Assembly (NCBI GenBank): GCA_964626935.1
Contig: CAZVIU010000001.1
Coordinates: 5,056-40,452 of the forward strand
DNA: 35,397 bases
Reading direction: 5' to 3'
Source of the DNA: an uncultured Gammaproteobacteria bacterium
GTDB taxonomy: Bacteria > Patescibacteriota > Patescibacteriia > CAZVIU01
Shown: in pieces, positions 2,943 through 35,397 of the stretch
How positions within the stretch are numbered: position 1 is the first letter of the stretch
How the letters are laid out: every line of letters starts with the position of its first letter
Position numbers and translations under genes: made by a program
The notes under the pieces: generated by a model
What the model was told of the DNA's origin: nothing
What the model saw: the letters and a program-made list of their open reading frames with translations, nothing else
Databases searched by the model: none

Positions 2943-2970
2943 TTAAAAATTCAAAAATCAAAACGCAAAA
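2943..2970. repeat. Heptanucleotide tandem array x4
   Basis: TTAAAAA TTCAAAA ATCAAAA CGCAAAA, starting directly after the mreB stop codon. Confidence 0.7.
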
Positions 2971-3083
2971 GGAGATGCTACCGAACTTCAATGGTTATTA
3001 AACGAACTTGTAGAGATTGCCAATATTTTGGCTTCAAGCACCCTCACTCTAAAAGGCAGAAAATAATTTTCACACTTTAAAAT

Positions 3084-3118
3084 GTCATTTTTTATTTTGA
3101 TCTTTGTATTTTACATTT
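3084..3118. repeat. Degenerate heptad array x5 abutting the GT4 ATG
   Basis: GTCATTT TTTATTT TGATCTT TGTATTT TACATTT, then ATG 3119. Confidence 0.5.
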
Positions 3119-4396
3119 ATGTTAATTGGTATCGATGCCTCACGCGCCAACTTAGAAAAGAAGACCGGAGTAGAACACTACTCCTATTTTTTAATTCAAG
3201 AATTTAAAAAAATAATAAAAATTGAGCCCGAACCCTTACTGCGGGCGCAACACGAGGTTCGGGCTCAAGTTAAAAAAGTAATTCTATATTCTCCAGAGCC
3301 TTTGCGCGGCGATCTCGGTAACCTGTCAAAGAATTGGCAATGGCAAAAAGTGCGATCACCGATAAATCTGCCGACCGGCAAATTTATTGGTAACGGAAAA
3401 TTACACGGCAAGCGTCCATTTTTATGGACGCAGCTAGGTCTGGCACTAGAAATGCTGCGGCGGCCACCTGATATTCTTTTTGTGCCATCGCATGCCCTGC
3501 CATTTATCTGTCCAAAAAACTCTTTTGTTACTATTCACGACATTGGTTTTGAACGATTTCCAGAAAGTTATCATTGGTTGGCGCGCCTGTATCACGAGTT
3601 GGTAACTCGGTTTGCTCTAACTCGAGCAAAGAAAGTCATCACCATTTCAGAATTTAGTAAAAACGAGCTTGTTTCGTTTTATCATGCTGATCCAGAAAAA
3701 ATAGCGGCTATATTGATTGCGTACGATAATTTAAGATTTCATGCTAATTTAGATCTGGTAAAAAAGGAAGTGGTTTTAGAAAAATATTTTCCGCGATCTG
3801 AAAAATCCGAATTGCATCCGAATGATGCAAAATACATTTTATATGTTGGTCGGCTTGAAAAAAAGAAAAATATTTTAACTTTGATTAAAGCATTTGAACT
3901 ACTTTCCAAAATCTATAACCTACCACCGCGGGGCGGGATCCTGTTCGCGGGACAACCTATGACTTATAATCTCGTTCTTGCCGGTTATCCCGCCTTCGGC
4001 TTTGACGAAATACGTAAGACTGTTCAAGATTCTCCAGTTCGTGATCGTATCAAAGTCTTAGATTATGTCCCTAGTGATGATCTGCCTTATTTAATGTCCG
4101 GCGCAAGCGTTTTTGTTTTTCCATCGCTTTATGAGGGTTTTGGTATTCCAATTTTGGAAGCAATGGCTGTTGGCACGCCAGTTGTTTGTTCTGATATTCC
4201 TAGCCTAAAAGAAGTGGGCGGCCAAGCCGCGTTGTTTGCTAACCCCCAAAGCCCAGAAGATTTTGCCCTAAACATACATCAAGTTTTAACTGATCAAAAT
4301 CTCCGCGAAACTTTAATTAATCGCGGCCTTGAACAAGTTAAAAAATTTTCCTGGGCAAAGACCGCTAAGGCAACCGTTGACCTTTTGATTAGCTAA
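3119..4396 (+). CDS. GT-B fold (GT4-like) glycosyltransferase with N-terminal insertions
   Basis: N-terminal IGIDASRANLEKKTGVEHY and C-terminal FPSLYEGFGIPILEAMAVGTPVV (E-x7-E region) are typical of GT4. ATG 3119 has no SD and is abutted by a T-rich heptad array. Confidence 0.8.
   Translation: MLIGIDASRANLEKKTGVEHYSYFLIQEFKKIIKIEPEPLLRAQHEVRAQVKKVILYSPEPLRGDLGNLSKNWQWQKVRSPINLPTGKFIGNGKLHGKRPFLWTQLGLALEMLRRPPDILFVPSHALPFICPKNSFVTIHDIGFERFPESYHWLARLYHELVTRFALTRAKKVITISEFSKNELVSFYHADPEKIAAILIAYDNLRFHANLDLVKKEVVLEKYFPRSEKSELHPNDAKYILYVGRLEKKKNILTLIKAFELLSKIYNLPPRGGILFAGQPMTYNLVLAGYPAFGFDEIRKTVQDSPVRDRIKVLDYVPSDDLPYLMSGASVFVFPSLYEGFGIPILEAMAVGTPVVCSDIPSLKEVGGQAALFANPQSPEDFALNIHQVLTDQNLRETLINRGLEQVKKFSWAKTAKATVDLLIS
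3222..3268. repeat. 13-bp perfect inverted repeat inside the GT4 coding sequence
   Basis: TTGAGCCCGAACC, then 21 nt, then GGTTCGGGCTCAA. It is GC-rich, flanked by A-runs, and encodes EPEPLLRAQHEVRAQ in an apparent insertion. Confidence 0.8.
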
Positions 4397-4442
4397 TGCT
4401 AGTATGAGTTTTATGTCCAAAACGAACAAGGAGAAACAACCA

Positions 4443-6212
4443 ATGGATATTTGGGCAACAGTTAAGTTCGTTGTCAATTTATTGCATCCGCATAAACGGT
4501 TGGTGATGGTTCTTTCATTGTTGGCATTTCTCGCGGCGCTACTCGGAGTCATTATCCCGATTGTGTATGGAAAAGTGCTTGATACGGTGCTCGCCAAATC
4601 GCCGGTTGTTACTGTTGTCTGGTTTCTTGTCATTTGGTTTGCACTACGCATTATCGTTGGATGGTTGCACCGTACCATTAATCATCGGGGAAGATTAATG
4701 GCGCATGGTGTCTCTTCAGAACTGGCTACTTCAATGGAGCAAAGGCTTTTTGATTTACCGCTTTCATTTCATCAAGGCAATAAGCTTCATGATGTGTCCG
4801 ATAAGATTGGTACCTTGCGATGGACATTGAACAATGTGATTGAATGGGGACTTTTTGATACCGGACCAACGTTTATTGCGTCAATCTGCATGGTTGCATA
4901 TACCGCCTTTCTTGATGTGCGAGTAGCAGCGACACTCTTCAGTGGTTTAGTGTTATTCCTTATAAGCAATATCGCACGGTCGAAAAAATTTATTGCTCTA
5001 CTGGAAGAATCGGATGAGTATGATCACGATCGCGTTGCGAGTATCTATGATGGTCTTGGCAATATCCTCATTGTAAAATCATCAGGCGGTGAGGGGTTCG
5101 AGCGGCAAAGGGCGCATGACGGACTACTTGGTTTACGAGAAAAAAATAATGTTTGGGCTCGGTGGCTCAAGGGTACGGTGTTGCGACAGGATATCATCGC
5201 AGCGTTTGGAGTCTTGGGAGCAATTTCATTTGCCGCTCACAGTGTTTATGTCGGACGTCTTACGGGCGGACAATTTGTAAGCATTATTGGTTATGCGTAT
5301 ACCATTTTTGGTTATATTGCATGGATTCAGTGGCAGTTCGTCAGTCTACTCAAAATAGTTGCGCGTAAAAAATTTGTGGATGAGATTTTTTCTGAAAAGA
5401 TTGAAGACTATGAAAGCGGCAGAGCGTTTGCCATCGAAGGAGCTGTAGAATTCAAGGGGGTCAGTTTTAGATACCGTGAAAATGTGCCGTTACTCCACGA
5501 TGTTAATTTCGCGGTTCGTGCTGGAGAACAAGTCGCGATTGTTGGCGAGAGCGGTGAAGGAAAGACAACGATCGTAGAATTGCTCGGTAGATACATGGCG
5601 CAACGCCAAGGAAGCATTACCATTGATAGACACAATGTTAATGAGATAAATCTCCGTTCATTGCGTGGTCAGATGGCTTATGTTCCACAAGACCTGACGC
5701 TCTTCCACGATACTATCGGCGCTAATATCCGTTATGGCAGGCGAGACGCGCAAGATAGTGAGGTGCAGGAAGCAATACGAAAAGCGCATCTTAACGAGTT
5801 CGTCGCAAGGTTGCCCGAAGGACTGGAGACAAAAGTAGGCGAGAGGGGATTGAAATTGTCGGCTGGCGAACGTCAACGCGTTGCGCTAGCTCGCGCTTTT
5901 CTTCGCGATCCAAGGATTTTAATTCTTGATGAGCCAACTTCAAATCTTGACGCTAAAACTGAAGAAATTATCCGCGCCTCGCTTCTAAAATTAATGCAAG
6001 GTCGGACGACATTAATTATTGCTCACCGCTTGCGCACTATTCGTGAAGCAGACAAGATTTTAGTGTTAAAAGATGGCCGTATTGTTCAAGAAGGAAGACA
6101 TGATGAGCTTATAATACAAGGCGGTGTTTACAATGAACTGCTTCGCGCTCAAGCCGGTTTTGTTCAAGAAGATATAGATGATAAAGAGGCATCAACTGCC
6201 CTAGAGCCCTAA
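4443..6212 (+). CDS. ABC exporter, fused permease/ATPase (MsbA-like type I exporter)
   Basis: N-terminal multi-helix TMD, then Walker A GESGEGKTT, signature LSAGERQR, Walker B ILILDEPTS and H-loop IAHRL. AAGGAG lies 9 nt before ATG 4443; the longer ORF from 4404 is possible. Confidence 0.85.
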   Translation: MDIWATVKFVVNLLHPHKRLVMVLSLLAFLAALLGVIIPIVYGKVLDTVLAKSPVVTVVWFLVIWFALRIIVGWLHRTINHRGRLMAHGVSSELATSMEQRLFDLPLSFHQGNKLHDVSDKIGTLRWTLNNVIEWGLFDTGPTFIASICMVAYTAFLDVRVAATLFSGLVLFLISNIARSKKFIALLEESDEYDHDRVASIYDGLGNILIVKSSGGEGFERQRAHDGLLGLREKNNVWARWLKGTVLRQDIIAAFGVLGAISFAAHSVYVGRLTGGQFVSIIGYAYTIFGYIAWIQWQFVSLLKIVARKKFVDEIFSEKIEDYESGRAFAIEGAVEFKGVSFRYRENVPLLHDVNFAVRAGEQVAIVGESGEGKTTIVELLGRYMAQRQGSITIDRHNVNEINLRSLRGQMAYVPQDLTLFHDTIGANIRYGRRDAQDSEVQEAIRKAHLNEFVARLPEGLETKVGERGLKLSAGERQRVALARAFLRDPRILILDEPTSNLDAKTEEIIRASLLKLMQGRTTLIIAHRLRTIREADKILVLKDGRIVQEGRHDELIIQGGVYNELLRAQAGFVQEDIDDKEASTALEP

Positions 6213-6385: not shown

Positions 6386-6401
6386 TTCTTGCAGATCTAT
6401 A

Positions 6402-6445
6402 TACGGAGGTCCGACCTCCGAATATTCGGAGGTCGGACCTCCGTA
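6402..6445. terminator. 44-bp perfect nested palindrome between convergent genes
   Basis: TACGGAGGTCCGACCTCCGAATATTCGGAGGTCGGACCTCCGTA. Every position pairs, and each arm is itself a 17-nt palindrome. It ends 2 nt from the corA-like stop. Confidence 0.65.
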
Positions 6446-7401: not shown

Positions 7402-7436
7402 AGATTAGGTTTTAGATATTAAGCGTTGGTTTTGAT
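7402..7436. repeat. Degenerate heptad array x5 abutting the corA-like ATG
   Basis: AGATTAG GTTTTAG ATATTAA GCGTTGG TTTTGAT on the plus strand. TAG, TAG and TAA at 7406, 7413 and 7420 occupy all three frames. Confidence 0.5.
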
Positions 7437-9018: not shown

Positions 9019-9561
9019 ATGGACTTTGGAAATTTTCCGCCGCTAAAATATCCAACTGCTTATGTTAGCGTTGACGCCATTGTTTTTCGACCAGATGATG
9101 GGAAGATTTTGACTGGCCTAAGACGTGATGATCCGTGGAAAGGTTATTTGACGCTGATGTTTGGAGGATATGTTGATCCAACTGATGAAGATGCTCAAAG
9201 TGCGGCTGTACGCGAAACTAAAGAAGAAACCGGGCTCAAAGTTCAACTGACTGGATTTGTTGGTATTTACGGCCCAGAGCGATTTAGGCACAGATTGCGC
9301 CGAATAGGTGGCAATAATATGTTTTTTGCTGAAGCTACGAAAGAACCAGCGCACATTCGTCCGAGTGTCAGCATAGCTTTTTCCAGCGTTGTAGTTGACG
9401 GCACACTCAATGATACGACTGAACAAAAAGATTTGAAGTGGTTGGATATTAAAGATATTGTTGACCGGGAATTTATTGCCTTTGATCACGCCCGTGCCTT
9501 ATCTGATTGGTTAAACAATTTTTATTCCTCCAAACGCGCTCTTGTCTTTTTGAACAAATAA
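9019..9561 (+). CDS. Nudix hydrolase
   Basis: Near-canonical Nudix box GGYVDPTDEDAQSAAVRETKEETGL. AAGGAGG SD. Lies 10 nt after the previous gene, so probably in an operon with mgtE. Confidence 0.75.
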   Translation: MDFGNFPPLKYPTAYVSVDAIVFRPDDGKILTGLRRDDPWKGYLTLMFGGYVDPTDEDAQSAAVRETKEETGLKVQLTGFVGIYGPERFRHRLRRIGGNNMFFAEATKEPAHIRPSVSIAFSSVVVDGTLNDTTEQKDLKWLDIKDIVDREFIAFDHARALSDWLNNFYSSKRALVFLNK

Positions 9562-9586
9562 AGATATTCACGATCGTGAATATCTT
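9561..9586. repeat. 26-bp perfect loopless palindrome
   Basis: AAGATATTCACGATCGTGAATATCTT, starting in the stop codon of the Nudix gene. Confidence 0.8.
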
Positions 9587-9685: not shown

Positions 9686-10975
9686 TTAGGAGAAGGGTGC
9701 GGGATAAACCGGAAATTCAGCTGTTAATTCTTTCATTACTTTTTTAGATTTTTGTAAGACCGTATCTGATTTAGGATTTTGAAGTATTTGCGCAATTATT
9801 TTTCCAATTAGACACAGTTCACCTTCTTTCATTCCGCGAGTAGTCAAGGCTGGCGTGCCTAGTCTTATGCCCGAAGGATCAAATGGTTTGCGGCTGTCAA
9901 AAGGGATTGTATTTTTATTAACAGTAATACCAGCTTGAGCAAGAAGATTTTCAGCTTCTTTGCCAGTTAAACCAACAGAAGTGACATCAGCGAGAATCAG
10001 ATGATTATCAGTGCCGCCGGTGACCAAACGTAATCCGTGAGCGAGGAGTTCATTGGCTAAGACGCGGGCATTTTTAACAATCTGCTCACCGTATTTGCGA
10101 AAAGCAGGTTTAGCTGCTTCGGCCAAAGCCACGGCAATGGCTGCAGTTTGATGATTATGCGGTCCGCCCTGAAGCCCGGGAAAAACCGCGCGATCAATCA
10201 TTGTTGGCAAATATTTAGGTGTTCGTTCTGGCGGCGCAAGCAGGGGATTTGATGGCTCGCCATTACATAAAATCATAGCGCCGCGCGGCCCGCGCAAAGT
10301 TTTATGAGTGGTTGTTGTAATGACATCAGCGTATTTTGCCGGAGACGGATGGACGCCGGCAATAATTAGTCCGGCAACGTGGGAGATATCGGCAACTAAA
10401 TAGGCATCGACAGTTTTAGCAATGCTAGCGAGTGCCGCCCAGTCAAAAATGCGCGGATAAGCAGTAGCGCCAACAAAAATCAGGCGCGGTTTTTCGATTA
10501 ACGCTTGCTTTTCCAAAGCATTATAATCCAGCCAGCCGTCTTTGCCGGTAACATATTGAACTGCGTTATAGTAAACGCCGGAAAAATTAACTTTCCAACC
10601 ATGAGTTAGATGGCCGCCGTAGAACAAATGCAAACCCATTAGTTTTTCACCAGGCGCAAGTAAGGCAAAACAGACTGCTTGATTAGCTGGCGAGCCAGAA
10701 TAGGGTTGAACATTAGCATGACTTACTTCGAAAAGTTTTTTAGCTCGCTCTTGCGCCAAAAGTTCAATCTTGTCAATAAATTCATTGCCGTCGTAATATC
10801 TTTTGCCTGGATAGCCTTCTGAATATTTATTAGTCAGCGGCGTGCCTAAAGCCTCTAGCACAGCGCGCGATACATAATTTTCTGAAGCAATTAAAGATAG
10901 CTCGTGGTTTTGACGAGCAAGTTCTTTATTAATAAGTTGATTAATTTTAGCATCAGTTTTTGGTAAATAACGCAT
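9686..10975 (-). CDS. glyA: Serine hydroxymethyltransferase
   Basis: LIASENYVS, GSPANQAV and the PLP-lysine region TTTTHKTLRGPRG; about 429 aa, full-length SHMT. Confidence 0.95.
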   Translation of the reverse strand: MRYLPKTDAKINQLINKELARQNHELSLIASENYVSRAVLEALGTPLTNKYSEGYPGKRYYDGNEFIDKIELLAQERAKKLFEVSHANVQPYSGSPANQAVCFALLAPGEKLMGLHLFYGGHLTHGWKVNFSGVYYNAVQYVTGKDGWLDYNALEKQALIEKPRLIFVGATAYPRIFDWAALASIAKTVDAYLVADISHVAGLIIAGVHPSPAKYADVITTTTHKTLRGPRGAMILCNGEPSNPLLAPPERTPKYLPTMIDRAVFPGLQGGPHNHQTAAIAVALAEAAKPAFRKYGEQIVKNARVLANELLAHGLRLVTGGTDNHLILADVTSVGLTGKEAENLLAQAGITVNKNTIPFDSRKPFDPSGIRLGTPALTTRGMKEGELCLIGKIIAQILQNPKSDTVLQKSKKVMKELTAEFPVYPAPFS

Positions 10976-10994
10976 GACTTGATCATAGCATAAT

Positions 10995-11018
10995 AAAAAC
11001 CCCTGATCTAGTCAGGGG
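10995..11018 (-). terminator. Terminator hairpin downstream of the 11037..11336 gene
   Basis: On the minus strand this reads CCCCTGACTAGATCAGGGG followed by TTTTT. Confidence 0.65.
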
Positions 11019-11036: not shown

Positions 11037-11336
11037 TTAATTAGTTAAGTAAAGTTCAATTATATGATCATCATCACTGTCTTGATATAATCTGGCCTTG
11101 AGCGGTTTTAGTAATTTAAAAGTAATATTGCTTCTATGAGGCAGGGGCAGATAAACAGCCTTGTTTCTGGATTTCAGCGATGTTTGTAAGATTACTTTAT
11201 GGGTTTTTGGCGGGCTCATTTTAAATTTTGAAGGCGAAATCTCCAAAATACTTTCAAACGGATTTTCTGTGTCTTGAGTTAATCTAAGCTGCACCAAGAC
11301 CCCAGCATTATTATGAACATAGATTTCGTCAGCCAT
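11037..11336 (-). CDS. Hypothetical small protein
   Basis: ORF with GGAGGAG SD 6 nt before ATG 11336 (the track ORF starts further upstream at 11363). No recognisable motif. Confidence 0.45.
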   Translation of the reverse strand: MADEIYVHNNAGVLVQLRLTQDTENPFESILEISPSKFKMSPPKTHKVILQTSLKSRNKAVYLPLPHRSNITFKLLKPLKARLYQDSDDDHIIELYLTN

Positions 11337-11349
11337 GTTGTCTCCTCCT

Positions 11350-11384
11350 GACACAAAAACCAATTACCAACTGCCAACAACTAA
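11350..11384. repeat. Heptanucleotide tandem array x5
   Basis: CCAATTA CCAACTG CCAACAA CTAATCA GTAACTT, between the two small minus-strand genes. Confidence 0.7.
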
Positions 11385-11886: not shown

Positions 11887-12528
11887 ATGAGAAAAGCTGG
11901 CATTGTTGCAGGCACCTTGCTTATCTTGGCAAAGTCAGCCAGCGCGGATAAAAATTTTGGTCTGGGCTTGGGATATGATCGAGTTTTCAGTGACCAAGCG
12001 AGGATTATTGATACACTGAAACCCAATATTCATTTACGCGCGCCTAAGTATACCATGCTCGAGCTTGGCGCTGAAGTCGGGAAAAGCTTGGTTCTAGATT
12101 TCAAGTTCCATCTTTTAAGATTTGATAGATTTTCTTTGCACTTGATTGATCCGGGAATTTATCTACCATTCCATGATTTATTTTTTACGCGGCAGGATGT
12201 GAAACGCTCATTTGATTTTATCTTTGGCGGGGGAGTAGATGTTTTTCTATATCAAGGCTTAATGGTTTCTCTAGGCGCGCGCTGGATGTTCCCAAATTAT
12301 TTCCAAGTCATGCCCGATGTTAAAGACGGTAAATATGATCAACAAACAGCAATTGCTGAAGATGAAGGAACAGGTAGTGGTCCACCCTTGGGTCCGCCAA
12401 TGCTTTGGAGCATTCCGATTGAAGATCCAGCCGCCAAAGCCCTAAACCACGCCAATTTCCTAAAAGATATTTATCTTGACTCTTTAGGCGCTGTACATTT
12501 AACTTTTGATTTGCGGTGGTACTGGTAG
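11887..12528 (+). CDS. Secreted protein with outer-membrane beta-barrel-like features
   Basis: AGGAGGA SD; signal peptide MRKAGIVAGTLLILAKSASA. Alternating-hydrophobic strands (FGLGLGY, LVLDFKF, FDFIFGGGVDVF) and a C-terminal VHLTFDLRWYW ending in an aromatic residue. Confidence 0.5.
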   Translation: MRKAGIVAGTLLILAKSASADKNFGLGLGYDRVFSDQARIIDTLKPNIHLRAPKYTMLELGAEVGKSLVLDFKFHLLRFDRFSLHLIDPGIYLPFHDLFFTRQDVKRSFDFIFGGGVDVFLYQGLMVSLGARWMFPNYFQVMPDVKDGKYDQQTAIAEDEGTGSGPPLGPPMLWSIPIEDPAAKALNHANFLKDIYLDSLGAVHLTFDLRWYW

Positions 12529-12530
12529 TT

Positions 12531-12567
12531 AGCACGAAAGCACGAGAGCACGAGAGCATGAAAGCAT
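12531..12567. repeat. Octanucleotide tandem array x4.6
   Basis: AGCACGAA AGCACGAG AGCACGAG AGCATGAA AGCAT, 3 nt after the stop of the beta-barrel-like gene and just before the terminator hairpin. Confidence 0.8.
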
Positions 12568-12574
12568 TAAAAAT

Positions 12575-12608
12575 AAAAACCCTGTCAGAATGATAGGGTT
12601 TAGTTTTT
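12575..12608. terminator. Bidirectional terminator between convergent genes
   Basis: AAAAACCCT-GTCAGAATGAT-AGGGTTTAGTTTTT. It overlaps the stop of the minus-strand gene. Confidence 0.6.
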
Positions 12609-13070
12609 GGTGAATCTTTCATTTATAGATTTCTTTGCTATTTCGAAATGCGCGTGTGCTTTTTGTAAAATATTTTTGGCACGTTCAATCAGGCCGCTAT
12701 TTCTACCTAACTCAATAGATCTTTCAGTAAGGATTTCGCTGACTGTCACACTTCGCCACTCAATTCCTGTAATTTTCCAACTTATTTCAGTTTGACGTTC
12801 GGCAGTGATCATTAAAAGTCCGGCGTAAGTTTGCAAGCTCGCAACTTCTCCATAACCACCGCTAGATTTTGGAAACTGCCGATAGTTTAATAATCCCCAT
12901 TCTTTATCAAGGAACGTTCCGACCTGTATTGAAATACCAACCAGTTCTCCATCCTCATATTTATACTGCCAGATAGGTTTTAAATCTTTCTTTTTCATCC
13001 ATCGTATGTAAAAATAGGTCGTAAATCCACCAATTACAAAGGCTACAAGAGGAAGCCATGCCCAAATCAT
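12600..13070 (-). CDS. Membrane-anchored hypothetical protein
   Basis: AAGGAGGAA SD before ATG 13070. N-terminal TM helix IWAWLPLVAFVIGGFTTYFYI followed by a soluble domain. No family recognised. Confidence 0.5.
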   Translation of the reverse strand: MIWAWLPLVAFVIGGFTTYFYIRWMKKKDLKPIWQYKYEDGELVGISIQVGTFLDKEWGLLNYRQFPKSSGGYGEVASLQTYAGLLMITAERQTEISWKITGIEWRSVTVSEILTERSIELGRNSGLIERAKNILQKAHAHFEIAKKSINERFTKN

Positions 13071-13190: not shown

Positions 13191-13201
13191 ATCATCAACA
13201 C

Positions 13202-25565: not shown

Positions 25566-25606
25566 GTCTTTTATTATACACTAGAACTATCACTCACCAT
25601 ATCCTA

Positions 25607-25716: not shown

Positions 25717-26940
25717 ATGCATTTTCTTAAAAACCTTTTCGCTAATCATTTATCTCGCGAGCTTAAGGAACTATATTTATCCGCGATTATTCTTCGTTTT
25801 GCCTTATCAGCTCTTTATATTTTTGAGCCTATTTATTTTCTTAAGATTGGTTTAAGCATTGGTCAAATTCTTCTTTATCAAGCGGCTTTATATTTATTAT
25901 ATTTCCTACTTTTGCCAATTGGCGGCAAGCTGGCTCGTTTGCATGGTTATGAGCATGTCATGACTTGGTCAAGTCCATTTTTAATTATTTATTTGGTTGC
26001 TTTATTTGCCATGCCTTATAACCAAATGTTTATAATCCTCGCCTTAATCTCGGCGGTATTTTATAAAAGTCTATATTGGCCTGGTTTTCACGCTGATTTT
26101 GCCAGATTCGGCCAGAGTCACGAACGAGGAAAAGAAATCGGTTTGTTAGTAGCCGTGCTCACAAGTGTTGGAATTTTCGGGCCAATTTTTGGCGGCTGGA
26201 TAATATCAATTGCCGGATGGCAAACGCTGTTCGTAATCATCGGCAGTTTTATTCTATTTTCCAGTATTCCTATGCTAACTACTCCAGAAAAATTTCAACC
26301 AGTAGATTTTTCTTACCAAGAAGCGATACGTGAAGTTTTTGCAAAAAGAAATCTACGTCAATCAATAGCTTTTATTGGTTATAGCGAGGATCTAATCTTC
26401 GGTATAATTTGGCCGATTTTTATTGCCGCAGTTATAAAAAACTTATTCGGAGTCGGTGCCTTAATTTCGGCCTCAACTCTGGTCAACATATTGATCATTT
26501 TGCTCATTGGAAATTTTGTTGATAAGCATGCGCGCTTGCGTATTGAACGTTTTGGGTCAATTTTAACCGCTTTTGTTTGGTTTGGCGCCAGCTTAATCCG
26601 CAATGCGGCCGGAGTTTTTATTTTTGATAATCTTTACAGAATTTCTAGAAATATTTTGGGCACATCGCTGATGTCAATTATCTATGATGAGGCTAAAAAT
26701 TCTTCAGTTATGAAGGTAATGATTTTTAGAGAAATGGGTTTGGCTTTTGGAAAGATTTTAGGCGCCTTGGTCGCTCTCTTGGTTTGGACGATTTTTCCCA
26801 ATCGGTTAAATCTGCTTTTTGTGTTGGCTGGCTTATTCAGTTTGTTTTATCTTTTACTTAAAGAGCGCGTCAAGCCAGATGGCCTGACGCTCCCGCCGAT
26901 ACAACCGGATGTAATAGTACCAATAAACCCTAAAGCATAA
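25717..26940 (+). CDS. MFS-like transporter
   Basis: About 12 hydrophobic segments with a central loop. No SD; the ATG is abutted by TAGTTCG TAGTTCG TACCCAC. Confidence 0.65.
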   Translation: MHFLKNLFANHLSRELKELYLSAIILRFALSALYIFEPIYFLKIGLSIGQILLYQAALYLLYFLLLPIGGKLARLHGYEHVMTWSSPFLIIYLVALFAMPYNQMFIILALISAVFYKSLYWPGFHADFARFGQSHERGKEIGLLVAVLTSVGIFGPIFGGWIISIAGWQTLFVIIGSFILFSSIPMLTTPEKFQPVDFSYQEAIREVFAKRNLRQSIAFIGYSEDLIFGIIWPIFIAAVIKNLFGVGALISASTLVNILIILLIGNFVDKHARLRIERFGSILTAFVWFGASLIRNAAGVFIFDNLYRISRNILGTSLMSIIYDEAKNSSVMKVMIFREMGLAFGKILGALVALLVWTIFPNRLNLLFVLAGLFSLFYLLLKERVKPDGLTLPPIQPDVIVPINPKA

Positions 26941-26941: not shown

Positions 26942-26962
26942 TTTTTAATCCTTAATTTTAGT
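26942..26962. repeat. Degenerate heptad array x3 abutting the HAD-IB ATG
   Basis: TTTTTAA TCCTTAA TTTTAGT, then ATT ATG. Confidence 0.4.
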
Positions 26963-28843: not shown

Positions 28844-28869
28844 AAGACGCTTGGAAGAGCGTCTTTTTG
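28844..28869 (+). terminator. Terminator after the HAD-fold gene
   Basis: AAGACGCT-TGGAAG-AGCGTCTT followed by TTTG. Confidence 0.75.
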
Positions 28870-28993: not shown

Positions 28994-29016
28994 ATTTATA
29001 GTTTAATACTTTTTTC

Positions 29017-29044
29017 TAGAGCCTAAAGCCTAGTGCCTAGAGCC
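29017..29044. repeat. Heptanucleotide array x4 (TAR-N4) just upstream of uvrB
   Basis: TAGAGCC TAAAGCC TAGTGCC TAGAGCC, ending 8 nt before ATG 29053. Its stop triplets fall in all three frames. Confidence 0.8.
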
Positions 29045-29052
29045 TTCAATTC

Positions 29053-31149
29053 ATGGATTTCAAATTAACCTCAAAATATAAACCAGCTGGTGATCAACCC
29101 AAAGCTATTGCTGAGTTACGTGATGGTTTACTTCGGGGTAATCAATATCAAACTCTGCTTGGCGTGACTGGTTCAGGTAAAACTTTTTCTATTGCTAATG
29201 TAATCGAAGCATGGCGGAAACCAACCCTGATCATTGCCCATAATAAAACACTGGCTGCGCAATTATGTAATGAATTCCGTGAACTTTTTCCCCAAAATGC
29301 TGTGCATTATTTTGTTTCTTATTATGATTATTATCAGCCCGAAGCTTATTTGCCAAGAACTGATACTTATATAGAAAAAGAAGCCACGATTAACGATGAG
29401 ATTGATAAGTTGCGTCACGCGGCCACGCAAAGTTTACTCACGCGTCAAGATGTGATTATTGTTGCTTCGGTTTCTTGTATTTATGGTCTGGGCGCGCCAG
29501 CTACTTATCGCAAGATAGCCCAACAATTAGAAGTTGGCCAAATAATTTCTCGCACTGATATTTTACATAACTTGATTGCTTTGCAATTTAGCCGCACTAA
29601 TGCCGATCTTAAACGCGGCACTTTTCGCTGGCGAGCCCAAGCCCTAGAAATAATGCCTGTTAATCAAGAATTGATTTATCGCATAGAAATGTCCGCGCAA
29701 AAAATTGATAGAATTTTTATTCTTGATCCGTTAACGCGTAAAATTCGTGAACAAGTAAACGAGGCGATATTTTTTCCAGCGCGGCATTTTGTAACCCTCC
29801 GTGATGAATTATCTGCCGCCTTAGACGCTATTCGCGCTGAACTTAGCGAACAATTAAAATTATTTGAGCGTCAAGGCAAATTACTTGAAGCCGAGCGATT
29901 AGAACGGCGCGTTAAAATGGACCTGGAAATGATTGAACAAGTAGGGTTTTGCCATGGTATTGAAAATTATTCTCGCCATCTATCTCGCCGCTTGTCTGGC
30001 GAACCGGGAGATACCCTGCTTGCATATTTTCCCGATGATTTTTTAATAGTGATTGATGAATCGCACGTAACTGTTCCACAGCTTGGAGGCATGTATGAAG
30101 GCGATGCGGCGCGTAAAAAAACTTTAATTGAATACGGATTTAGATTACCAAGCGCATCTGACAATCGGCCATTAAAATTTAATGAGTTTCAGCGCTACGC
30201 TAAGCGCGTAATTTTTACTTCGGCCACCCCTAGCATATATGAAAAAAAGGTTAGTCAGCAGATTGTTGAGCAGATCATTAGACCAACAGGGCTTGTCGAT
30301 CCAGCGGTTATTGTGAGGCCAATAACGTCAATAAATCAAAAATCAAAAACCAAAAATCAAAAATTAGGAATGGCTAGGCCACGATTGTTAGAAAACAGAA
30401 CCCAAGTAGATGATCTTATTGAACGAGTGCAAAAAAAGGTGGCCATTGGTGATCGCGTCCTGGTAACAACCTTAACCAAAAAAATGGCTGAAGATTTAAC
30501 CGAATTTTTACAAGCTAAAAAGATTAAAACTGAATATTTGCATAGTGAGGTTGACACATTAGATCGCATCAGAATCCTGATGGATTTTAGAAAAGGTAAA
30601 TTTGATGTACTTGTGGGTGTTAATTTGCTTCGGGAAGGTTTGGATTTGCCAGAAGTTTCATTGGTGGCGATTCTTGATGCTGATAAAGAAGGATTTTTGC
30701 GCAGCGAAACTTCGCTGATCCAAACTATTGGCCGGGCGGCGCGCAATGTCCGCGGTGAAGTAGTTTTATACGCGGATCAAATTACTGGCAGTATTAAACG
30801 GGCGCTTGATGAAACAGATAGAAGAAGAAAATTACAGCTTGAATATAATAAGAGGCACGGCATTACGCCTCGAACCATTAAGAAAAGAATACATGACATA
30901 TTTGAAGAATGGCAGATAATAAATCCGAAATCCGAAGCTCGAAATTTGAAACAAGGAAAAGAAGTTTTAAATATAGAATTACAAACTGATAAGCGGCCGG
31001 TGGAAGTGATTATTAGGGAAAAGGAACTGCAGATGAAGGAGGCGGCGCAAGGACTGGAGTTTGAGTTGGCCGCTTTAATTAGAGACGAGATTAAATTGTT
31101 AAAGCAGTATGCTAGACAAAATAATAATCAAAGGAGCTCGCGAGCATAA
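29053..31149 (+). CDS. uvrB: Excinuclease ABC subunit B
   Basis: GVTGSGKTF Walker A, DESH box, YYDYYQPEAY beta-hairpin region, helicase C motifs (QTIGRAARN) and a C-terminal UVR domain (EFELAALIRDEIKLLK). Carries an insertion of about 24 aa after VRPIT. Confidence 0.95.
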   Translation: MDFKLTSKYKPAGDQPKAIAELRDGLLRGNQYQTLLGVTGSGKTFSIANVIEAWRKPTLIIAHNKTLAAQLCNEFRELFPQNAVHYFVSYYDYYQPEAYLPRTDTYIEKEATINDEIDKLRHAATQSLLTRQDVIIVASVSCIYGLGAPATYRKIAQQLEVGQIISRTDILHNLIALQFSRTNADLKRGTFRWRAQALEIMPVNQELIYRIEMSAQKIDRIFILDPLTRKIREQVNEAIFFPARHFVTLRDELSAALDAIRAELSEQLKLFERQGKLLEAERLERRVKMDLEMIEQVGFCHGIENYSRHLSRRLSGEPGDTLLAYFPDDFLIVIDESHVTVPQLGGMYEGDAARKKTLIEYGFRLPSASDNRPLKFNEFQRYAKRVIFTSATPSIYEKKVSQQIVEQIIRPTGLVDPAVIVRPITSINQKSKTKNQKLGMARPRLLENRTQVDDLIERVQKKVAIGDRVLVTTLTKKMAEDLTEFLQAKKIKTEYLHSEVDTLDRIRILMDFRKGKFDVLVGVNLLREGLDLPEVSLVAILDADKEGFLRSETSLIQTIGRAARNVRGEVVLYADQITGSIKRALDETDRRRKLQLEYNKRHGITPRTIKKRIHDIFEEWQIINPKSEARNLKQGKEVLNIELQTDKRPVEVIIREKELQMKEAAQGLEFELAALIRDEIKLLKQYARQNNNQRSSRA
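30331..30365. repeat. Heptanucleotide array x5 inside the uvrB coding sequence
   Basis: ATAAATC AAAAATC AAAAACC AAAAATC AAAAATT. It encodes part of the INQKSKTKNQK insertion. Confidence 0.75.
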
Positions 31150-33868
31150 TCTTAAGAGCATCTCGCTGGAGTTGCCAAAAAATAAATTGATTGTTTTTAC
31201 TGGTTTGTCTGGATCGGGCAAATCATCTTTAGCATTTGATACAATTTTTGCTGAAGGCCAGCGTAGATATATTGAATCGCTTTCTGCATATGCGCGGCAA
31301 TTCTTGGGAAAGATGGACAAACCCGATGTTGATGAAATTGAAGGACTTTCGCCAGCTATCTCAATAGATCAAAAAGCAGGGAGCGCTAATCCTCGTTCCA
31401 CAGTTGCCACCATTACAGAAGTTTATGATTATCTGCGGGTGTTATTCGCACGAATAGGTAAACCACATTGTGTATTATGTAAGAAGCCGATTAAGAAGCT
31501 CACCGTCGACGAGATAGTGGAGATTGTTATAAGGAAAGAGATTGAAGCTCACAAAGCTGAAAATTCGAAATATGAAGCGCGTTACCATGAAGCTGGATCT
31601 CGTTCGCGAGAAAACACGAAACAACCCCCAAAGTCTAAACTCCAAATTCTAAATTCTATAATCATTCTCGCCCCGGCCGTTCGTGGCAGAAAAGGGGAAT
31701 ACCATCAACTCCTGTATGATTTTTTAAATGCCGGATATAGCGAAGTACGCGTTGATGGAAAAATAAAATCCTTGCGTGATCGCATAGTACTTTCTCGTTA
31801 CCGGGCCCACACCATTGAATTAGTGGCTGATCGCGTGCCTTTAGGCTGGCCGCTAGAAGGCAATAAAAATTTTCGAACCCATCTTTATGAAGCCATTGAA
31901 ACAGCGTTGAAATACGGAAATAACGTGGTAACTATCATTTTAGATAATTGTTTGGAGATGACGATGTCGTCTGCCTTCAGTTGTCCCAACGATGGTTTTT
32001 CATTTCCAGAAATTGAACCGCGATTTTTTTCATTCAACAGCCCTTACGGCGCTTGCGAGACTTGCCATGGTTTAGGCACAGAATTTTTGTTTTCAGAAAC
32101 ACCTTGTCCTAAATGTTGCGGTGCGCGATTGAAAGACGAAGCTATGCATGTCCTAATCAAAGATAAAAATATTGTCGACATCACCGCTATGACTATAGGC
32201 GATGCTTATAATTTCTTCACTTCCATGCTTCACAGCATGGAAGTGGGTAGCTCGTCTCCTCAAATTTGGAAGAGCGATCGAGATGGGAGAGATTTAAAAA
32301 TTGCCGCACCAGCGCTTCGAGAGATTACCAACCGTTTGAAATTTATGTTTGATGTTGGCTTGGATTATTTGATGCTTGATCGCCGTGCGAGCACTTTGTC
32401 CGGCGGCGAAGCGCAAAGAATTCGTTTGGCCTCGCAAATTGGTTCGCGGCTTACCGGCACTCTTTATGTGCTAGATGAACCAACCATTGGTCTTCATCAG
32501 CGCGACAACGAAAAATTAATTAAAACACTGGAAGAGCTGCGCGATCTCGGCAATACCATTATTGTTGTTGAACACGATGAAGACACCATTCGTAAAAGTG
32601 ATTATTTGGTTGATTTTGGGCCGGGAGCAGGCCGGGCCGGAGGGCAAATCGTTGTAGCTGGAGAAACAACCAGTCTTTTGTCGTCGCGAGGAGTGAGCAG
32701 AGCGAGCGACGCGGCGATCTTGTCTCAAGGAGAGAGATTGCCACACCCCGCTTTAGTGGGACTCGCAACGACCGGCAACAGACAATCCCTTACCCTCCAA
32801 TACTTACGCGCCGAAGTAAAAATTGAAGTGCCGAAACAGAGAAGGGGAGAATCGCGAGAAAAACTAAAAATTGTTGGCGCGACAGAAAATAATTTAAAAA
32901 GTATTAATGTAGAAATTCCGCTGCGGCGTTTTGTTTGCGTAACTGGAGTTTCAGGATCAGGAAAATCAACACTTGTTTATGATGTTTTGCATCGAGCCTT
33001 GGCTAAGAAATTATATCGCTCGCGCCTAAACCCGGGTAAGCATAAGGCCTTACTCGGTCTTGAACATTTAGATCGAGTAGCAGAGATTGATCAGTCGCCA
33101 ATTGGCCGGACGCCGCGATCAAATCCAGCGACCTATACCGGAGTTTGGACTGAAATTCGCGATCTTTTTACCATGACTGAAGAGTCGCGTTTACGCGGCT
33201 GGAAACCGGGCCGATTCAGCTTTAATGTTCCTGGCGGTCGCTGTGAACACTGTGAGGGGCATGGCAGTTTAGCCATTGAAATGCATTTCCTGCCAACAGT
33301 TTATGTGAAATGCGATGTTTGTGAGGGCAAGAGATTTGATAAAGAAACACTAGAGGTTAAATATAAAAATAAAAATATTTCTGAAATTTTGCGTATGACC
33401 ATTGACGAAGCTGATGTTTTTTTCCGTGACATCCCGCCAGTTCACGACAAATTAAAAATTTTGCGCGAGGTTGGACTTGGATATTTAGAGCTTGGGCAAA
33501 GCGCCACCACCCTTTCCGGAGGCGAAGCGCAAAGGGTAAAGCTAGCGGCTGAACTTGGGGCGTCGCCTATAACTGAACGCCGCGGCCGAAGCTTGTACTT
33601 GCTTGACGAACCAACCGTTGGTTTACATTTTGAAGATGTAAAAAAGTTACTTGAAGTTTTACAGCGGCTCGTGAGCTTAGGAAATTCGGTGGTGGTGATT
33701 GAACATAACCTTGATGTTATAAAATGTGCTGATTGGATTATTGATTTAGGGCCAGATGGGGGAGACAAGGGTGGGGAAGTGGTGGTGGCAGGAACTCCGG
33801 AAGAAGTGGCAAGACGAGCTGCGTCGTATACCGGAAGATATCTAAAAAGAGTTTTGAGCAGCTCATAA
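31109..33868 (+). CDS. uvrA: Excinuclease ABC subunit A
   Basis: Two ABC modules (GLSGSGKSSLAF and GVSGSGKSTL Walker A; two LSGGEAQR signatures) and Zn-module cysteines. ATG 31109 overlaps the uvrB 3' end by 41 nt. Confidence 0.95.
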   Translation: MLDKIIIKGAREHNLKSISLELPKNKLIVFTGLSGSGKSSLAFDTIFAEGQRRYIESLSAYARQFLGKMDKPDVDEIEGLSPAISIDQKAGSANPRSTVATITEVYDYLRVLFARIGKPHCVLCKKPIKKLTVDEIVEIVIRKEIEAHKAENSKYEARYHEAGSRSRENTKQPPKSKLQILNSIIILAPAVRGRKGEYHQLLYDFLNAGYSEVRVDGKIKSLRDRIVLSRYRAHTIELVADRVPLGWPLEGNKNFRTHLYEAIETALKYGNNVVTIILDNCLEMTMSSAFSCPNDGFSFPEIEPRFFSFNSPYGACETCHGLGTEFLFSETPCPKCCGARLKDEAMHVLIKDKNIVDITAMTIGDAYNFFTSMLHSMEVGSSSPQIWKSDRDGRDLKIAAPALREITNRLKFMFDVGLDYLMLDRRASTLSGGEAQRIRLASQIGSRLTGTLYVLDEPTIGLHQRDNEKLIKTLEELRDLGNTIIVVEHDEDTIRKSDYLVDFGPGAGRAGGQIVVAGETTSLLSSRGVSRASDAAILSQGERLPHPALVGLATTGNRQSLTLQYLRAEVKIEVPKQRRGESREKLKIVGATENNLKSINVEIPLRRFVCVTGVSGSGKSTLVYDVLHRALAKKLYRSRLNPGKHKALLGLEHLDRVAEIDQSPIGRTPRSNPATYTGVWTEIRDLFTMTEESRLRGWKPGRFSFNVPGGRCEHCEGHGSLAIEMHFLPTVYVKCDVCEGKRFDKETLEVKYKNKNISEILRMTIDEADVFFRDIPPVHDKLKILREVGLGYLELGQSATTLSGGEAQRVKLAAELGASPITERRGRSLYLLDEPTVGLHFEDVKKLLEVLQRLVSLGNSVVVIEHNLDVIKCADWIIDLGPDGGDKGGEVVVAGTPEEVARRAASYTGRYLKRVLSSS
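31630..31664. repeat. Heptanucleotide array x5 inside the uvrA coding sequence
   Basis: AAAGTCT AAACTCC AAATTCT AAATTCT ATAATCA. It encodes KSKLQILNSII within a lineage-specific insertion. Confidence 0.75.
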
Positions 33869-33896
33869 TTTTCAATTTCTAATTTCTAGTTTTCAA
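33869..33896. repeat. Heptanucleotide array x4 starting at the uvrA stop
   Basis: TTTTCAA TTTCTAA TTTCTAG TTTTCAA, directly after TAA 33866-33868. Confidence 0.7.
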
Positions 33897-33935: not shown

Positions 33936-33962
33936 ATAAAAAAGACGCTCATGAGGAGCGTC
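33936..33962 (-). terminator. Terminator for the small membrane protein pair
   Basis: On the minus strand this reads GACGCTC-CTCAT-GAGCGTC followed by TTTTTTATT. It overlaps the last codons of 33949..34179. Confidence 0.65.
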
Positions 33963-34179
33963 GATGTGTTAACCTGAAGTTAAGCGTTCTAGTACATATT
34001 AAGTTAGTTATAATTGCTGCAAACAAGCCAAGATATCCGACTAGCCCCGCGCCTATAGCGATGCCTTCTGTAAGAACAGGAGATTCGCCCATCTGTTCAT
34101 CGCCTCGTATCATTAAGCCTTTAGTTAAACCATAGGCTAAAAATCCACAAACAATGTAGCTGATAACTAACCAGCTCAT
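33949..34179 (-). CDS. Small two-TM membrane protein (paralog A)
   Basis: GAGGAGGG SD. N-terminus MSWLVISYIVCGFLAYGLTKG and a second hydrophobic helix. Paralogous to the adjacent ORF. Confidence 0.45.
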   Translation of the reverse strand: MSWLVISYIVCGFLAYGLTKGLMIRGDEQMGESPVLTEGIAIGAGLVGYLGLFAAIITNLICTRTLNFRLTHRRSS

Positions 34180-34191
34180 GCTGTCCCTCCT

Positions 34192-34458
34192 CTATTTCAG
34201 GTCCAGATGTTGTCTAGAGGCGCAGAGTTCTCGTGGCATGCGGAAGCAGAGTCGTGAATAAATAAACCCTACAAACTCCATAATTATTACAAGCGGCCCG
34301 AGCGAAAAGTCGATCCAGCAGCTTATCTCATCTGCTCTTGAATAACCCCAGTGTGGCAACCCGACATGATATCTGCTGTAAATCTCTTTCAATTTATACT
34401 TAGATAGTCCGTATGAAAGTACTCCGCATACAATCCATCCGATCCAGAACCATGACAT
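34192..34458 (-). CDS. Small two-TM membrane protein (paralog B)
   Basis: AAGGAGG SD 7 nt before ATG 34458. N-terminus MSWFWIGWIVCGVLSYGLSKY parallels paralog A. The track ORF starts earlier, at 34485. Confidence 0.45.
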   Translation of the reverse strand: MSWFWIGWIVCGVLSYGLSKYKLKEIYSRYHVGLPHWGYSRADEISCWIDFSLGPLVIIMEFVGFIYSRLCFRMPRELCASRQHLDLK

Positions 34459-34561
34459 TATGCACCTCCTTTTGTAAGGAGCCACAAGCTATCCCCCAAA
34501 TCAGGGGTAGTCAAGATCACCACTGACCTCGACGTGAACATAATACTATAAATATCAAAAT

Positions 34562-35397
34562 ATGTCAAGACCGAAATTTCTAAATGCTAAACGCTATACG
34601 CTAGACGCTAAAATTTTGCCTCAAACGCCAGGAATATATTTGTTCAAGAATAAGAATGGGACGATTATTTATATAGGCAAGGCCGGGAATTTGCGTCGGC
34701 GAGTGGTTTCATATTGGCAAAAAAATCATCAAGATATTCGCATCAAAAATTTAGTTTCAGAAATTACTAAAATTGATTTTGAAGAGTCAAAAACGGTAAT
34801 TGAAGCGTTAATCCGCGAGGCCGAGCTAATCAAAAAATATCAGCCAAAATTTAATGTCCGCGAGAAAGACAACAAATCTTTTTTATATGTGATATTCACA
34901 AAAGAAAAGTTCCCTCGGCCGCTTCTTTTGCGTGATCAAGAACTAAAAGTAAATGTCCCGGCCAGGACATTTACTAAATCACAAAAAATAAACAAGTTAG
35001 CCAAAATCAAAGCTTTAATAAATAGAAAATATATATTTGGGCCATTTGTGCAGGCTAGTTCGATTCGCGTAGCCTTACGCATTTTACGCAGGATTTTTCC
35101 ATACTCAACTTGTCAGACGAGAATACAGAATAAAGAATTTAGAATTCAGGCTAAAGCTTGTTTTGATTATCAAATCGGTCTTTGCCCCGGCGCTTGTCTT
35201 GGCGCGATTTCACGCCAAGCCCATCTAAAAAATATTCGTAATTTGATTTTATTTTTCCGTGGAAAAAAACAGCAGATTTTGCGCAATCTAAAACGTGAAA
35301 TGAAACAATTTGCCAAGGCAGAAGATTTTGAAGGCGCGGCCAAACTAAGGAATCAAATTTATGCTCTAGAGCATATTAAAGACACTGCCCTTATAAA
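34562..35397 (+). CDS. uvrC: Excinuclease ABC subunit C (5' partial, continues past the window end)
   Basis: Not in the ORF track because it is open-ended. Translation from ATG 34562 gives PGIYLFKNKNGTIIYIGKAGNLRRRVVSYW (GIY-YIG), a Cys-rich segment C-x16-C-x7-CPGAC and a UVR-like FEGAAKLRNQIYALE. Confidence 0.9.
   Translation, partial: MSRPKFLNAKRYTLDAKILPQTPGIYLFKNKNGTIIYIGKAGNLRRRVVSYWQKNHQDIRIKNLVSEITKIDFEESKTVIEALIREAELIKKYQPKFNVREKDNKSFLYVIFTKEKFPRPLLLRDQELKVNVPARTFTKSQKINKLAKIKALINRKYIFGPFVQASSIRVALRILRRIFPYSTCQTRIQNKEFRIQAKACFDYQIGLCPGACLGAISRQAHLKNIRNLILFFRGKKQQILRNLKREMKQFAKAEDFEGAAKLRNQIYALEHIKDTALI
34581..34615. repeat. Heptanucleotide array x5 (TAR-N4) inside the first 18 codons of uvrC
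   Basis: TAAATGC TAAACGC TATACGC TAGACGC TAAAATT. Only the unit in the uvrC frame (34595) reads TAT rather than a stop triplet. Confidence 0.8.

Follow-up and report, generated by a model that had tools for sequence, protein, structure and literature searches.

Short heptanucleotide tandem arrays beside and inside the genes of an uncultured, streamlined Patescibacteria lineage

Introduction

Heptanucleotides are the commonest class of long simple-sequence repeats (SSRs) in bacteria, where their distribution is sporadic and polymerase slippage has been proposed as their source (Mrazek 2007, as summarised in PMC4679880 and PMC4692102). The heptamers of Xanthomonas (GGGAATC) and Nostoc (GGGGA(C/T)T) are intergenic, include inverted pairs and change between close species, those of Xanthomonas both in length and in sequence (PMC4692102). 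Here we analyse short heptanucleotide arrays in a 35,397-nt stretch of contig CAZVIU010000001.1 (hereafter the window, whose numbering we use throughout) and in related loci (numbered with the prefix L). The source lineage belongs to the uncultured Patescibacteria (Candidate Phyla Radiation, CPR) and has a streamlined genome. The arrays are an already known kind of bacterial repeat, in a host for which the literature that we searched holds no report of such heptamer repeats. With a rough probability of 0.6, we regard them as heptanucleotide SSRs that arise from a lineage-specific mutational bias and are filtered by selection at permissive sites.

Several described systems are close in position as well as in period. 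In marine Beggiatoaceae, TAACTGA direct repeats lie just upstream of starts that lack a Shine-Dalgarno (SD) site, with one invariant unit at 169 loci (MacGregor 2015, PMC4679880). In Nostoc PCC 7120, heptamers stand at or over start codons and next to recF and recO, including (TTCAAAA)3 at recF (bioRxiv 10.1101/2022.06.06.494920). The hmw1A and hmw2A genes of Haemophilus influenzae have 7-bp tracts of 13-38 perfect units whose copy number tunes expression (Dawid 1999, as described in PMC2651432); as far as that description goes, this is the only experimentally validated functional example.

Like the known long SSRs, the arrays of the window and its relatives are over-represented tandem 7-nt units, mostly intergenic, sporadic in distribution and different between close species, with occasional inverted pairs. 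They differ from them in their streamlined, ~89%-coding host, in being short (3-5 units) and imperfect, in having A+T-rich units that are not G-quadruplex-forming, and in the large proportion of arrays that are located in frame within conserved genes. With the Beggiatoaceae repeats they have in common 2-6 heptamer copies, for some of the arrays a position a few nucleotides upstream of starts whose genes usually lack an SD site, an occasional location inside open reading frames (ORFs) and stop triplets in the unit. Nevertheless, many different units are used here, whereas a single invariant unit is found there and related heptamers are rarely repeated. TAACTGA itself occurs seven times singly and never in tandem, and with so many units in use we rejected membership of that network. 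A post-transcriptional regulon was proposed for the Beggiatoaceae; here, turnover between relatives argues against sequence-specific regulation.

The likeness to the cyanobacterial heptamers lies in the many unit families per genome, in arrays near or overlapping starts, and in (TTCAAAA)n, which is found at Nostoc recF and at position 2943 of the window. Cyanobacterial arrays can be much longer, however, and the host phylum is unrelated. The short tandemly repeated repetitive (STRR) units of heterocystous cyanobacteria are CCCCAGT, TTGGTCA and CAACAGT; neither these nor any signature unit of the other systems described above forms tandems here, and membership of the STRR families was rejected. 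As at hmw1A and hmw2A, some heptanucleotide arrays stand between promoter and start codon.

Results and Discussion

Period-7 excess in the window and its lineage

We counted a cluster where a 21-nt test window held at least 17 lag-7 matches. The whole window has 6 period-7 clusters, compared with 0.0 in 50 dinucleotide shuffles, and every other period from 2 to 15 gives 0-1. Within the 3,837 nt of non-coding DNA, 5 clusters have period 7, where 0.26 would be expected (200 shuffles gave at most 3), and 3 have period 8, again with an expectation of 0.26; the coding DNA has 7 period-7 clusters, compared with 1.03 under codon shuffling (at most 4 in 100 shuffles). Array density is 2.4 per kb in non-coding and 0.35 per kb in coding DNA, a ratio of about 7. 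The period-7 signal above shuffled sequence that the initial annotation of the window anticipated is therefore present, and it exceeds what composition yields. Head-to-tail 7-nt copies of at least three units were found in six of the nine arrays listed in that annotation and in at least six more.

The excess is real and is specific to this period and this lineage. Across the window and nine related loci (137 kb) there are 49.7 period-7 clusters per 100 kb, with 5-15 for other periods, compared with 5.7 in 77 diverse bacterial and archaeal uvrB loci and 7.5 in 13 other Patescibacteria-labelled loci, so that the distribution is sporadic and lineage-restricted. A Magasanikbacteria locus (L002) reaches 49.9, and a Nostoc control locus (L026), at 31.9, has a period-7 excess comparable to that of the window. 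Array-poor Patescibacteria include L003, L004, L006 and L007. Two further sporadic heptamer-rich lineages were seen: an uncultured gammaproteobacterial locus with 43% G+C (L027) has TAACAAC/TTGTTAG arrays at 1435-1506, 4805-4883 and 21354-21379, some as inverted pairs, and a Syntrophobacteraceae locus (L038) has three TAGGCTG units at 4916-4939.

Three of the nine listed arrays are strong. The first, at 2938-2972 (listed as 2943-2970), was recovered by objective detection with 17/21 lag-7 matches and reads AATAATT AAAAATT CAAAAAT CAAAACG (AAAATTC-type); it begins within the mreB stop codon and occupies the 3' untranslated region. The second, CTAGAGC CTAAAGC CTAGTGC CTAGAGC at 29016-29048 on the plus strand (17/21), ends 4 nt ahead of the uvrB ATG, is identical in contig L001 and probably constitutes most of the SD-less 5' untranslated region of uvrB. 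The third, five CTAAANG units at 34575-34613 on the plus strand (listed as 34581-34615; 21/28 matches), covers codons 5-18 of uvrC. The arrays at 29016-29048 and 34575-34613, the two strongest, have a common CTA(G/A) core, which places TAG/TAA at 7-nt spacing on both strands, and L094 has the unit CTAAACG/CGTTTAG again, in inverted pairing, ahead of clpB (20142-20214).

Three others are moderate. At 11350-11384 on the minus strand, four TTGG-N3 units of the sense strand (18/28 matches) immediately precede a strong AGGAGG SD, which is followed by the ATG of a hypothetical gene of 99 aa. At 33866-33895 (listed from 33869), TAATTTT CAATTTC TAATTTC TAGTTTT (15/21) starts inside the stop codon of uvrA and is followed by a terminator hairpin. 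The array at 25696 has two perfect TAGTTCG units and an unrelated third. It belongs to a pair of segments, 62 nt apart at 25631-25725 on the plus strand, each with (TAGTTCG)x2.3 (direct-repeat family D2), and the second TAGTTCG copy (25696-25711) ends 5 nt ahead of the ATG of an MFS permease gene. The DoxX-MFS spacer (25566-25716) contains this 62-nt tandem duplication, which copies a promoter-like TTTGTAATTTTCGT box, the TAGTTCG array and an ACAT(A)ATG start context; its upstream copy retains an ATG with an 8-codon ORF.

The remaining three are not above chance: a T-rich stretch at 3084-3118 ahead of the GT4 ATG (17/28 matches, with 0.48 expected from its own composition), which is a loosely inverted partner of the 2943 array; 7402-7436, adjoining the corA ATG (11/28, P=0.35 against its own composition); and 26942-26962 on the plus strand, in the 25-nt MFS-HAD spacer (7/14, P=0.46). 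As a consequence, only 25696 and 29017 stand among the five arrays that had been described as abutting an ATG.

The earlier list lacked further coding arrays, in uvrB (30329 and 30916), uvrA (31634), uvrC (35118) and a GT2 glycosyltransferase gene, as well as a period-8 array, AGCACGAA x4.5-5, at 12528-12571 (Tandem Repeats Finder, TRF, score 51), which fills the gap between the stop codon of a hypothetical gene and the terminator hairpin at 12577-12601. The GT2 array is short, CCCAAAC-type, and lies at 1475-1497 on the plus strand in the second of two such genes, where it was detected by TRF. Independently of the lag-match scan, TRF gives period-7 rows that begin at 2941, 25635, 25696, 29016, 30328, 30921, 31630, 33866, 34580 and 35120.

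Arrays inside uvrA, uvrB and uvrC

According to alignments, the coding arrays occupy parts of UvrA, UvrB and UvrC that are rich in indels, either loops or termini; four genomes have them at orthologous positions, with different units. In the window, where the arrays absent from the earlier list all lie on the plus strand and came from the codon-shuffle analysis, four or five TCAAAAA units at uvrB 30329-30371 lie in a lineage-specific insertion of a UvrB loop (residues ~426-440); L090 and L091 have other heptamer arrays at the orthologous place, and L093 UvrB lacks the insertion. An ATCCGAA-type array (30916-30943) encodes part of the variable UvrB linker ahead of the UVR domain. The TCTAAAT-type array in uvrA (31634-31664) lies in an indel-rich loop (residues ~175-185) that bears arrays in all three relatives, and the AGAATNN-type array at 35118-35149 lies in a variable UvrC loop that has arrays in L090, L091 and L093. 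The in-frame arrays of these relatives are at 11273-11347 and 12612-12675 (L090), 9493-9567 and 10791-10870 (L091), and 12699-12837 and 16237-16429 (L093).

In every genome that we examined, all coding arrays keep the reading frame, and the encoded peptides are lineage-specific, low-complexity sequences of the IPNSKF, LNSQLS and NPKSEIR type. Some arrays of relatives are perfect over four units: (ATCCGAA)4 in L090, (CAGATTT)4 in L091 and (TCAGATT)4 in L094. Consensus units with a stop triplet make up 10/35 on the sense strand of coding arrays versus 18/35 on the antisense strand; because three heptamer units run through all three frames, stop-bearing units cannot persist in genes.

The array at 34581 is the clearest example. 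Among its five TAN-N4 units, only the one at 34595 has its TAN in frame, where it reads TAT, and the UvrC N-terminus, MS(R/I)PK, is conserved in relatives, to which the array adds ~5 residues. The array is thus part of the translated uvrC gene, which means that it does not act as a stop pad.

Turnover between related genomes

The closest named relatives of the window's UvrB, MFS and GlyA proteins are Uhrbacteria, Magasanikbacteria, Falkowbacteria or 'Patescibacteria group', and UvrB identity to any GTDB representative is at most 61%. Relatives were reached via the protein database and contig look-ups; a scan of the MFS protein against metagenome contigs found none. The syntenic relatives L090, L091 and L093 (UvrB identity 66-69%) have 13, 16 and 8 period-7 clusters per 22 kb, and the adjoining non-uvr part of the L093 genome, L094, has 6; among these are arrays within folD and within a mraY-like gene, and one that lies 8 nt ahead of rplU.

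In the DoxX<-|->MFS->HAD region, the MFS proteins of L086-L088 are 84-85% identical to that of the window and 92-95% to each other, and the spacers in L086-L088 are unrelated to the window's in sequence and length. The DoxX-MFS spacers of all four loci L086-L089 differ completely from that of the window. Upstream of the MFS ATG, L086 and L087, whose MFS proteins are 95% identical, have a homologous AAGYTAN array, with ~7-8 units in L086 (as TAAGNNN, abutting the ATG) and ~3 units in L087; the DoxX-MFS spacer has TAGTTCG in the window and no array in L088 or L089. The MFS-HAD spacer measures 25 nt in the window, 11 nt without an array in L089, 85 nt in L086 and 157 nt in L087, the last two being built from different, unrelated arrays; the L088 locus ends before this spacer. 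Likewise, the 11350 array lies in a 73-nt spacer whose orthologue in L097, an 84%-identity relative, is 11 nt long, has a stop codon overlapping the SD and lacks an array.

Positional conservation, which the initial annotation had anticipated in orthologous loci, was thus not found for the intergenic arrays: at 84-95% protein identity, units and copy numbers differ or the array is missing. This speaks against a sequence-specific function, not against the reality of the repeats. Arrays thus come, go and change length over the time in which species diverge, and are not visibly hypervariable.

A proposed mutational origin, filtered by selection

We propose that a mutational process of the lineage would make, expand, contract and erode tandem 7-nt (occasionally 8-nt) units, most likely through replication slippage, or through tandem duplication of short segments, that strongly favours steps of 7 nt, and that selection would leave arrays only where added length is tolerated. 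Such permissive places would be the promoter-to-ATG interval of genes that do not use an SD site, the interval between stop codon and terminator, and, in frame, the indel-tolerant loops and termini of UvrA, UvrB, UvrC and the like. Most arrays would probably be neutral or nearly so and act at most as unstructured, G+C-poor spacers. Slippage, the cause of the 7-nt step and neutrality go a step beyond the excess, the placement, the turnover and the uvrC translation, and are what we infer from them.

Under this model, several apparently designed features need no separate cause. Units that contain a stop survive only outside genes, so they necessarily mark or abut a gene boundary and take on the look of three-frame stop pads; arrays abut starts and stops because the genome is compact, and three-frame closure follows because 7 mod 3 = 1. 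Among the three roles initially suggested for the arrays, slippage-born microsatellites are the best supported, given the specificity for period and lineage, the occurrence in coding loops, the rapid turnover and the copy-number difference at a homologous array.

Arrays at gene starts and ends

Five of the six objectively detected intergenic arrays lie at most 6 nt from a coding-sequence boundary, which random placement in the same spacers reproduces with P=0.009; arrays thus tend to adjoin gene ends, even though the spacers that contain several of them measure 150-226 nt. The two solid 5' arrays (25696 and 29017) end 4-5 nt ahead of the ATG in spacers of 151 and 226 nt, and the 3' arrays are placed between the stop codon and a terminator-like hairpin.

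The five genes initially named as having an array against their ATG all lack an SD site, as had been stated, but a GGAG-type SD is missing in ~15 of the 33 window genes anyway, and ~45-55% of genes in this lineage are without one. Of the 11 array-preceded starts in the window and seven related loci, 10 have no SD, compared with 58 of 106 (55%) of the other starts (Fisher P=0.018). The comparison is in part circular, since an array that fills the last 30 nt takes up the SD slot and leaves little room for an SD; the array at 11350 precedes AGGAGG. The habit of lying upstream of SD-less starts is thus seen at 25696, at 29017 and at those 10 of 11 lineage starts, but equally many arrays are found at 3' ends or within genes.

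In several genes without an SD, among them doxX (25566-25590), glyA (10976-11000) and uvrC (34535-34561), a TATAAT-like box stands 6-9 nt ahead of the ATG, and the doxX arrangement is kept in four relatives (L086-L089). Such spacing suggests leaderless mRNAs. Promoters and 5' untranslated regions were assigned by eye; consensus promoter scans were uninformative, with 21 and 30 sites versus 25 and 22 in shuffles. Predicted folding of the start region has a mean minimum free energy (MFE) of -4.3 kcal/mol for array-preceded, -6.2 for SD-less and -7.1 for SD-bearing starts; the difference between array-preceded and other SD-less starts is not significant (P=0.065) and tracks lower G+C.

These data bear on the idea that the arrays are SD-independent leaders or regulator tracks, that is, unstructured G+C-poor landing pads or binding sites for S1-, Csp- or CsrA-like proteins that drive or regulate initiation; a role of this kind has been suggested for the Beggiatoaceae TAACTGA repeats and the Nostoc heptamers. 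The SD association, the abutment and the weaker predicted folding would all be expected, and a similar positional habit is described in two other phyla (PMC4679880; bioRxiv 10.1101/2022.06.06.494920). We consider this reading possible but unlikely. Besides the circularity and the G+C effect already mentioned, orthologues in close relatives do with another array or none (28-nt spacer in L089, 11-nt in L097), a perfectly good SD follows the array at 11350, such a role is inapplicable to the many arrays at 3' ends or within genes, and the units are too heterogeneous for a single sequence-specific binder to be likely.

The arrays had also been described as often TAR-N4 and interpreted as three-frame stop pads, selected to end translation in every frame and to force SD-independent re-initiation. 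TAA/TAG triplets do recur at 7-nt spacing beside gene ends in the 29017, 25696 and 33869 arrays. However, TAA/TAG occurs in four of six supported arrays versus 33% of random non-coding heptamers, an enrichment that is not significant (P=0.09), and closure of all frames is an arithmetic consequence for any heptamer with a stop, which 43% of random non-coding heptamers contain, so it is no sign of design. In addition, the 34581 array is read through, most arrays of the relatives are stop-free and many lie in frame inside genes, and the 29017 array comes after a terminator-like hairpin (28844-28865) and a 190-nt spacer, so that ribosomes from upstream would be unlikely to arrive. Selected stop pads are therefore extremely improbable.

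The HutP antiterminator of Bacillus reads two sets of three UAG triplets with 4-nt spacers that flank a terminator. UAG/UAA triplets at the same 7-nt spacing are present in the 29017 and 34581 arrays, the sense strand at 29017 reading UAG/UAA/UAG/UAG. This is a single set, with no terminator downstream and no second set flanking one, most other arrays lack UAG, and the 34581 array is coding, so that we rejected these arrays as HutP sites. A HutP-like repeat-reading protein is not supported either: units vary from array to array, only the two CTAG-type arrays approximate UAG-N4, and a scan of 30 window proteins found no match to the HutP family. Rfam and tRNA/tmRNA scans of the window gave no matches either, and the arrays are thus not part of a known RNA family.

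Inverted pairs and hairpins

In the relatives, many arrays of heptamers or octamers are paired in inverted orientation and form long, significant hairpins, of which one arm often starts at a stop codon and the other ends just ahead of the next ATG. Such hairpins were found at L086:1731-1821 (z=-3.9), L087:2061-2150 (z=-5.4), L088:1075-1150 (z=-4.2), L090:18351-18485 between mraZ and rsmH (z=-3.6), L091:4888-5015 next to ftsH (z=-4.6) and L093:12110-12260 between uvrB and uvrA (z=-3.1), and one lies inside the loop-coding part of L091 uvrA (10785-10875, z=-4.8). L091 also has two mutually similar palindromic GGAATCA/TAATTCC elements of ~80 nt, one in uvrB and one in uvrA.

The arms may therefore matter as hairpin elements, either as a spacer-long stem that couples translation or stabilises or processes mRNA (in the manner of repetitive extragenic palindromic, REP, elements or of an RNase III site), or as palindromic mobile elements. 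In the coupling version, terminating ribosomes would unmask the next start; the mobile version has an analogue in the in-frame Rickettsia palindromic elements (RPEs). The significant hairpins in six loci and the paired elements in L091 uvrB and uvrA agree with this, as do the inverted heptamer pairs of Xanthomonas (PMC4692102). In the window, on the other hand, the only candidate pair (2943/3084) does pair in the MFE fold (with 2946-2965) but no better than shuffles (z=-0.08 and +0.31), and the strongest arrays have a single orientation and are unstructured (z ~0). A search of the window for dispersed identical copies, a mobile element or target-site duplications found none, nor are there dispersed palindromic copies of the RPE kind or of the kind formed by miniature inverted-repeat transposable elements (MITEs), and orthologous hairpins differ in sequence between close relatives. 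As an account of the inverted pairs, hairpin or mobile elements seem improbable.

Observations that weigh against a mutational origin

Several observations weigh against the origin by mutational bias that we prefer. The abutment to gene ends and the association with SD-less starts are also predicted by a translational function. The inverted pairs, and the likeness of units within and between genomes, which exceeds that of random heptamers (in L091, 17 similar unit pairs versus 2.6, a count inflated by A+T-rich low complexity), are unexplained by simple slippage and keep a functional or mobile-element reading alive. The arrays are imperfect column by column, with a conserved 4-nt core and three variable positions (NNNCCAA, NNNAAAA, TAAGNNN), a pattern that is not obviously expected if young perfect arrays simply decayed. 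Nothing that we found explains why the step is 7. Finally, a comparison of contigs that had been assembled independently from the same populations revealed no copy-number polymorphism, the contigs being base-for-base identical across the arrays (L001 and L082-L085 to the window, L092 to L091, and L095 and L096 to L094), so that the arrays are not hypermutable on the sampled time-scale.

This last result bears most directly on contingency loci, in which gain or loss of 7 nt would tune expression or frameshift uvrA, uvrB and uvrC (phase variation). Since 7 is not a multiple of 3, a one-unit change in these genes is a frameshift, perfect 4-unit coding arrays exist in L090, L091 and L094, copy number differs between L086 and L087 at the homologous array, and H. 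influenzae provides a precedent, as described in PMC2651432. The arrays of the window, however, have 3-5 imperfect units as opposed to the 13-38 perfect ones in that description, the coding arrays never leave the frame, and contigs from four metagenomes are identical. We therefore did not class the arrays with the hmw-type contingency SSRs, and phase variation is very improbable. With regard to slippage dynamics, species-level relatives differ (~3 versus ~7-8 units in L087 and L086, with arrays gained or lost elsewhere), and re-assembled contigs of one population are identical.

A broader functional interpretation would make the arrays a heptamer system of this Patescibacteria clade, in which genome-preferred units are spread by a possibly dedicated mechanism, single arrays are SD-independent leaders, inverted pairs gate translation by closing spacers from stop to start, and in-frame copies seed heptapeptide linkers in UvrA, UvrB, UvrC and other proteins. 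We think this unlikely. If true, it would be an independent instance of the 'repeat network' that was postulated but never demonstrated for Beggiatoaceae and Nostoc, in genomes with almost no spare DNA.

Whatever their origin, why bacterial heptamers have a 7-nt step and why genome-preferred units lie beside starts are unsolved questions for these repeats generally. Here, a Nostoc-like density occurs in a ~89%-coding genome, so that nearly every array is beside or inside a gene and the selective filter can be read directly, and the lineage offers a compact comparative system with several syntenic relatives and arrays turning over at fixed uvrA, uvrB and uvrC sites. The practical effects are modest: arrays create lineage-specific low-complexity loops in conserved proteins, can mislead the annotation of start codons and SD sites, and can look like designed signals.

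Other features of the window

The window is gene-dense. Pfam assignments comprise two GT2 glycosyltransferases, MreB, GT4, an ABC exporter, CorA, MgtE, NUDIX, SHMT, an NrtR-linked NAD salvage cluster, two MFS permeases, DoxX, HAD hydrolases and UvrB-UvrA, followed by a truncated UvrC. The contigs from four metagenomes (L001, L082-L085) hold pieces 100% identical to it. L001 equals the window over 4,021 nt and then diverges inside uvrA (L001:4022-4312 versus window 32858 onward), continuing with a 584-aa UvrA and a PhdYeFM antitoxin gene, which reflects either a strain-level rearrangement or a chimeric assembly.

The NAD salvage cluster (13181-21230) has an NrtR-family regulator gene at its head and includes NAD kinase-like, cytidylyltransferase-like (possible NadD), PncA, PncB, NadE and nucleoside deoxyribosyltransferase-like members. 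A 29-nt motif occurs at 14842-14870 and 15548-15576 (copies 86% identical), upstream of two cluster genes, and a perfect 36-bp palindrome at 19979-20014 precedes the last one; these are candidate NrtR operators.

Other repeats include a perfect 22-nt inverted repeat in the convergent ABC/corA spacer (6399-6445; hairpin unit GGAGGTC-GACCTCC), and a 41-nt x2 tandem repeat with an adjoining 31-nt palindrome (21962-22079), both in the spacer of 469 nt that precedes the first MFS gene. In the uvrA-uvrC interval, the minus strand has two small paralogous genes (33949-34179 and 34192-34458, 76 and 88 aa), whose products both begin MSW..I.CG..YGL and which each have a strong SD; in the relatives, small minus-strand genes likewise lie between uvrA and uvrC.

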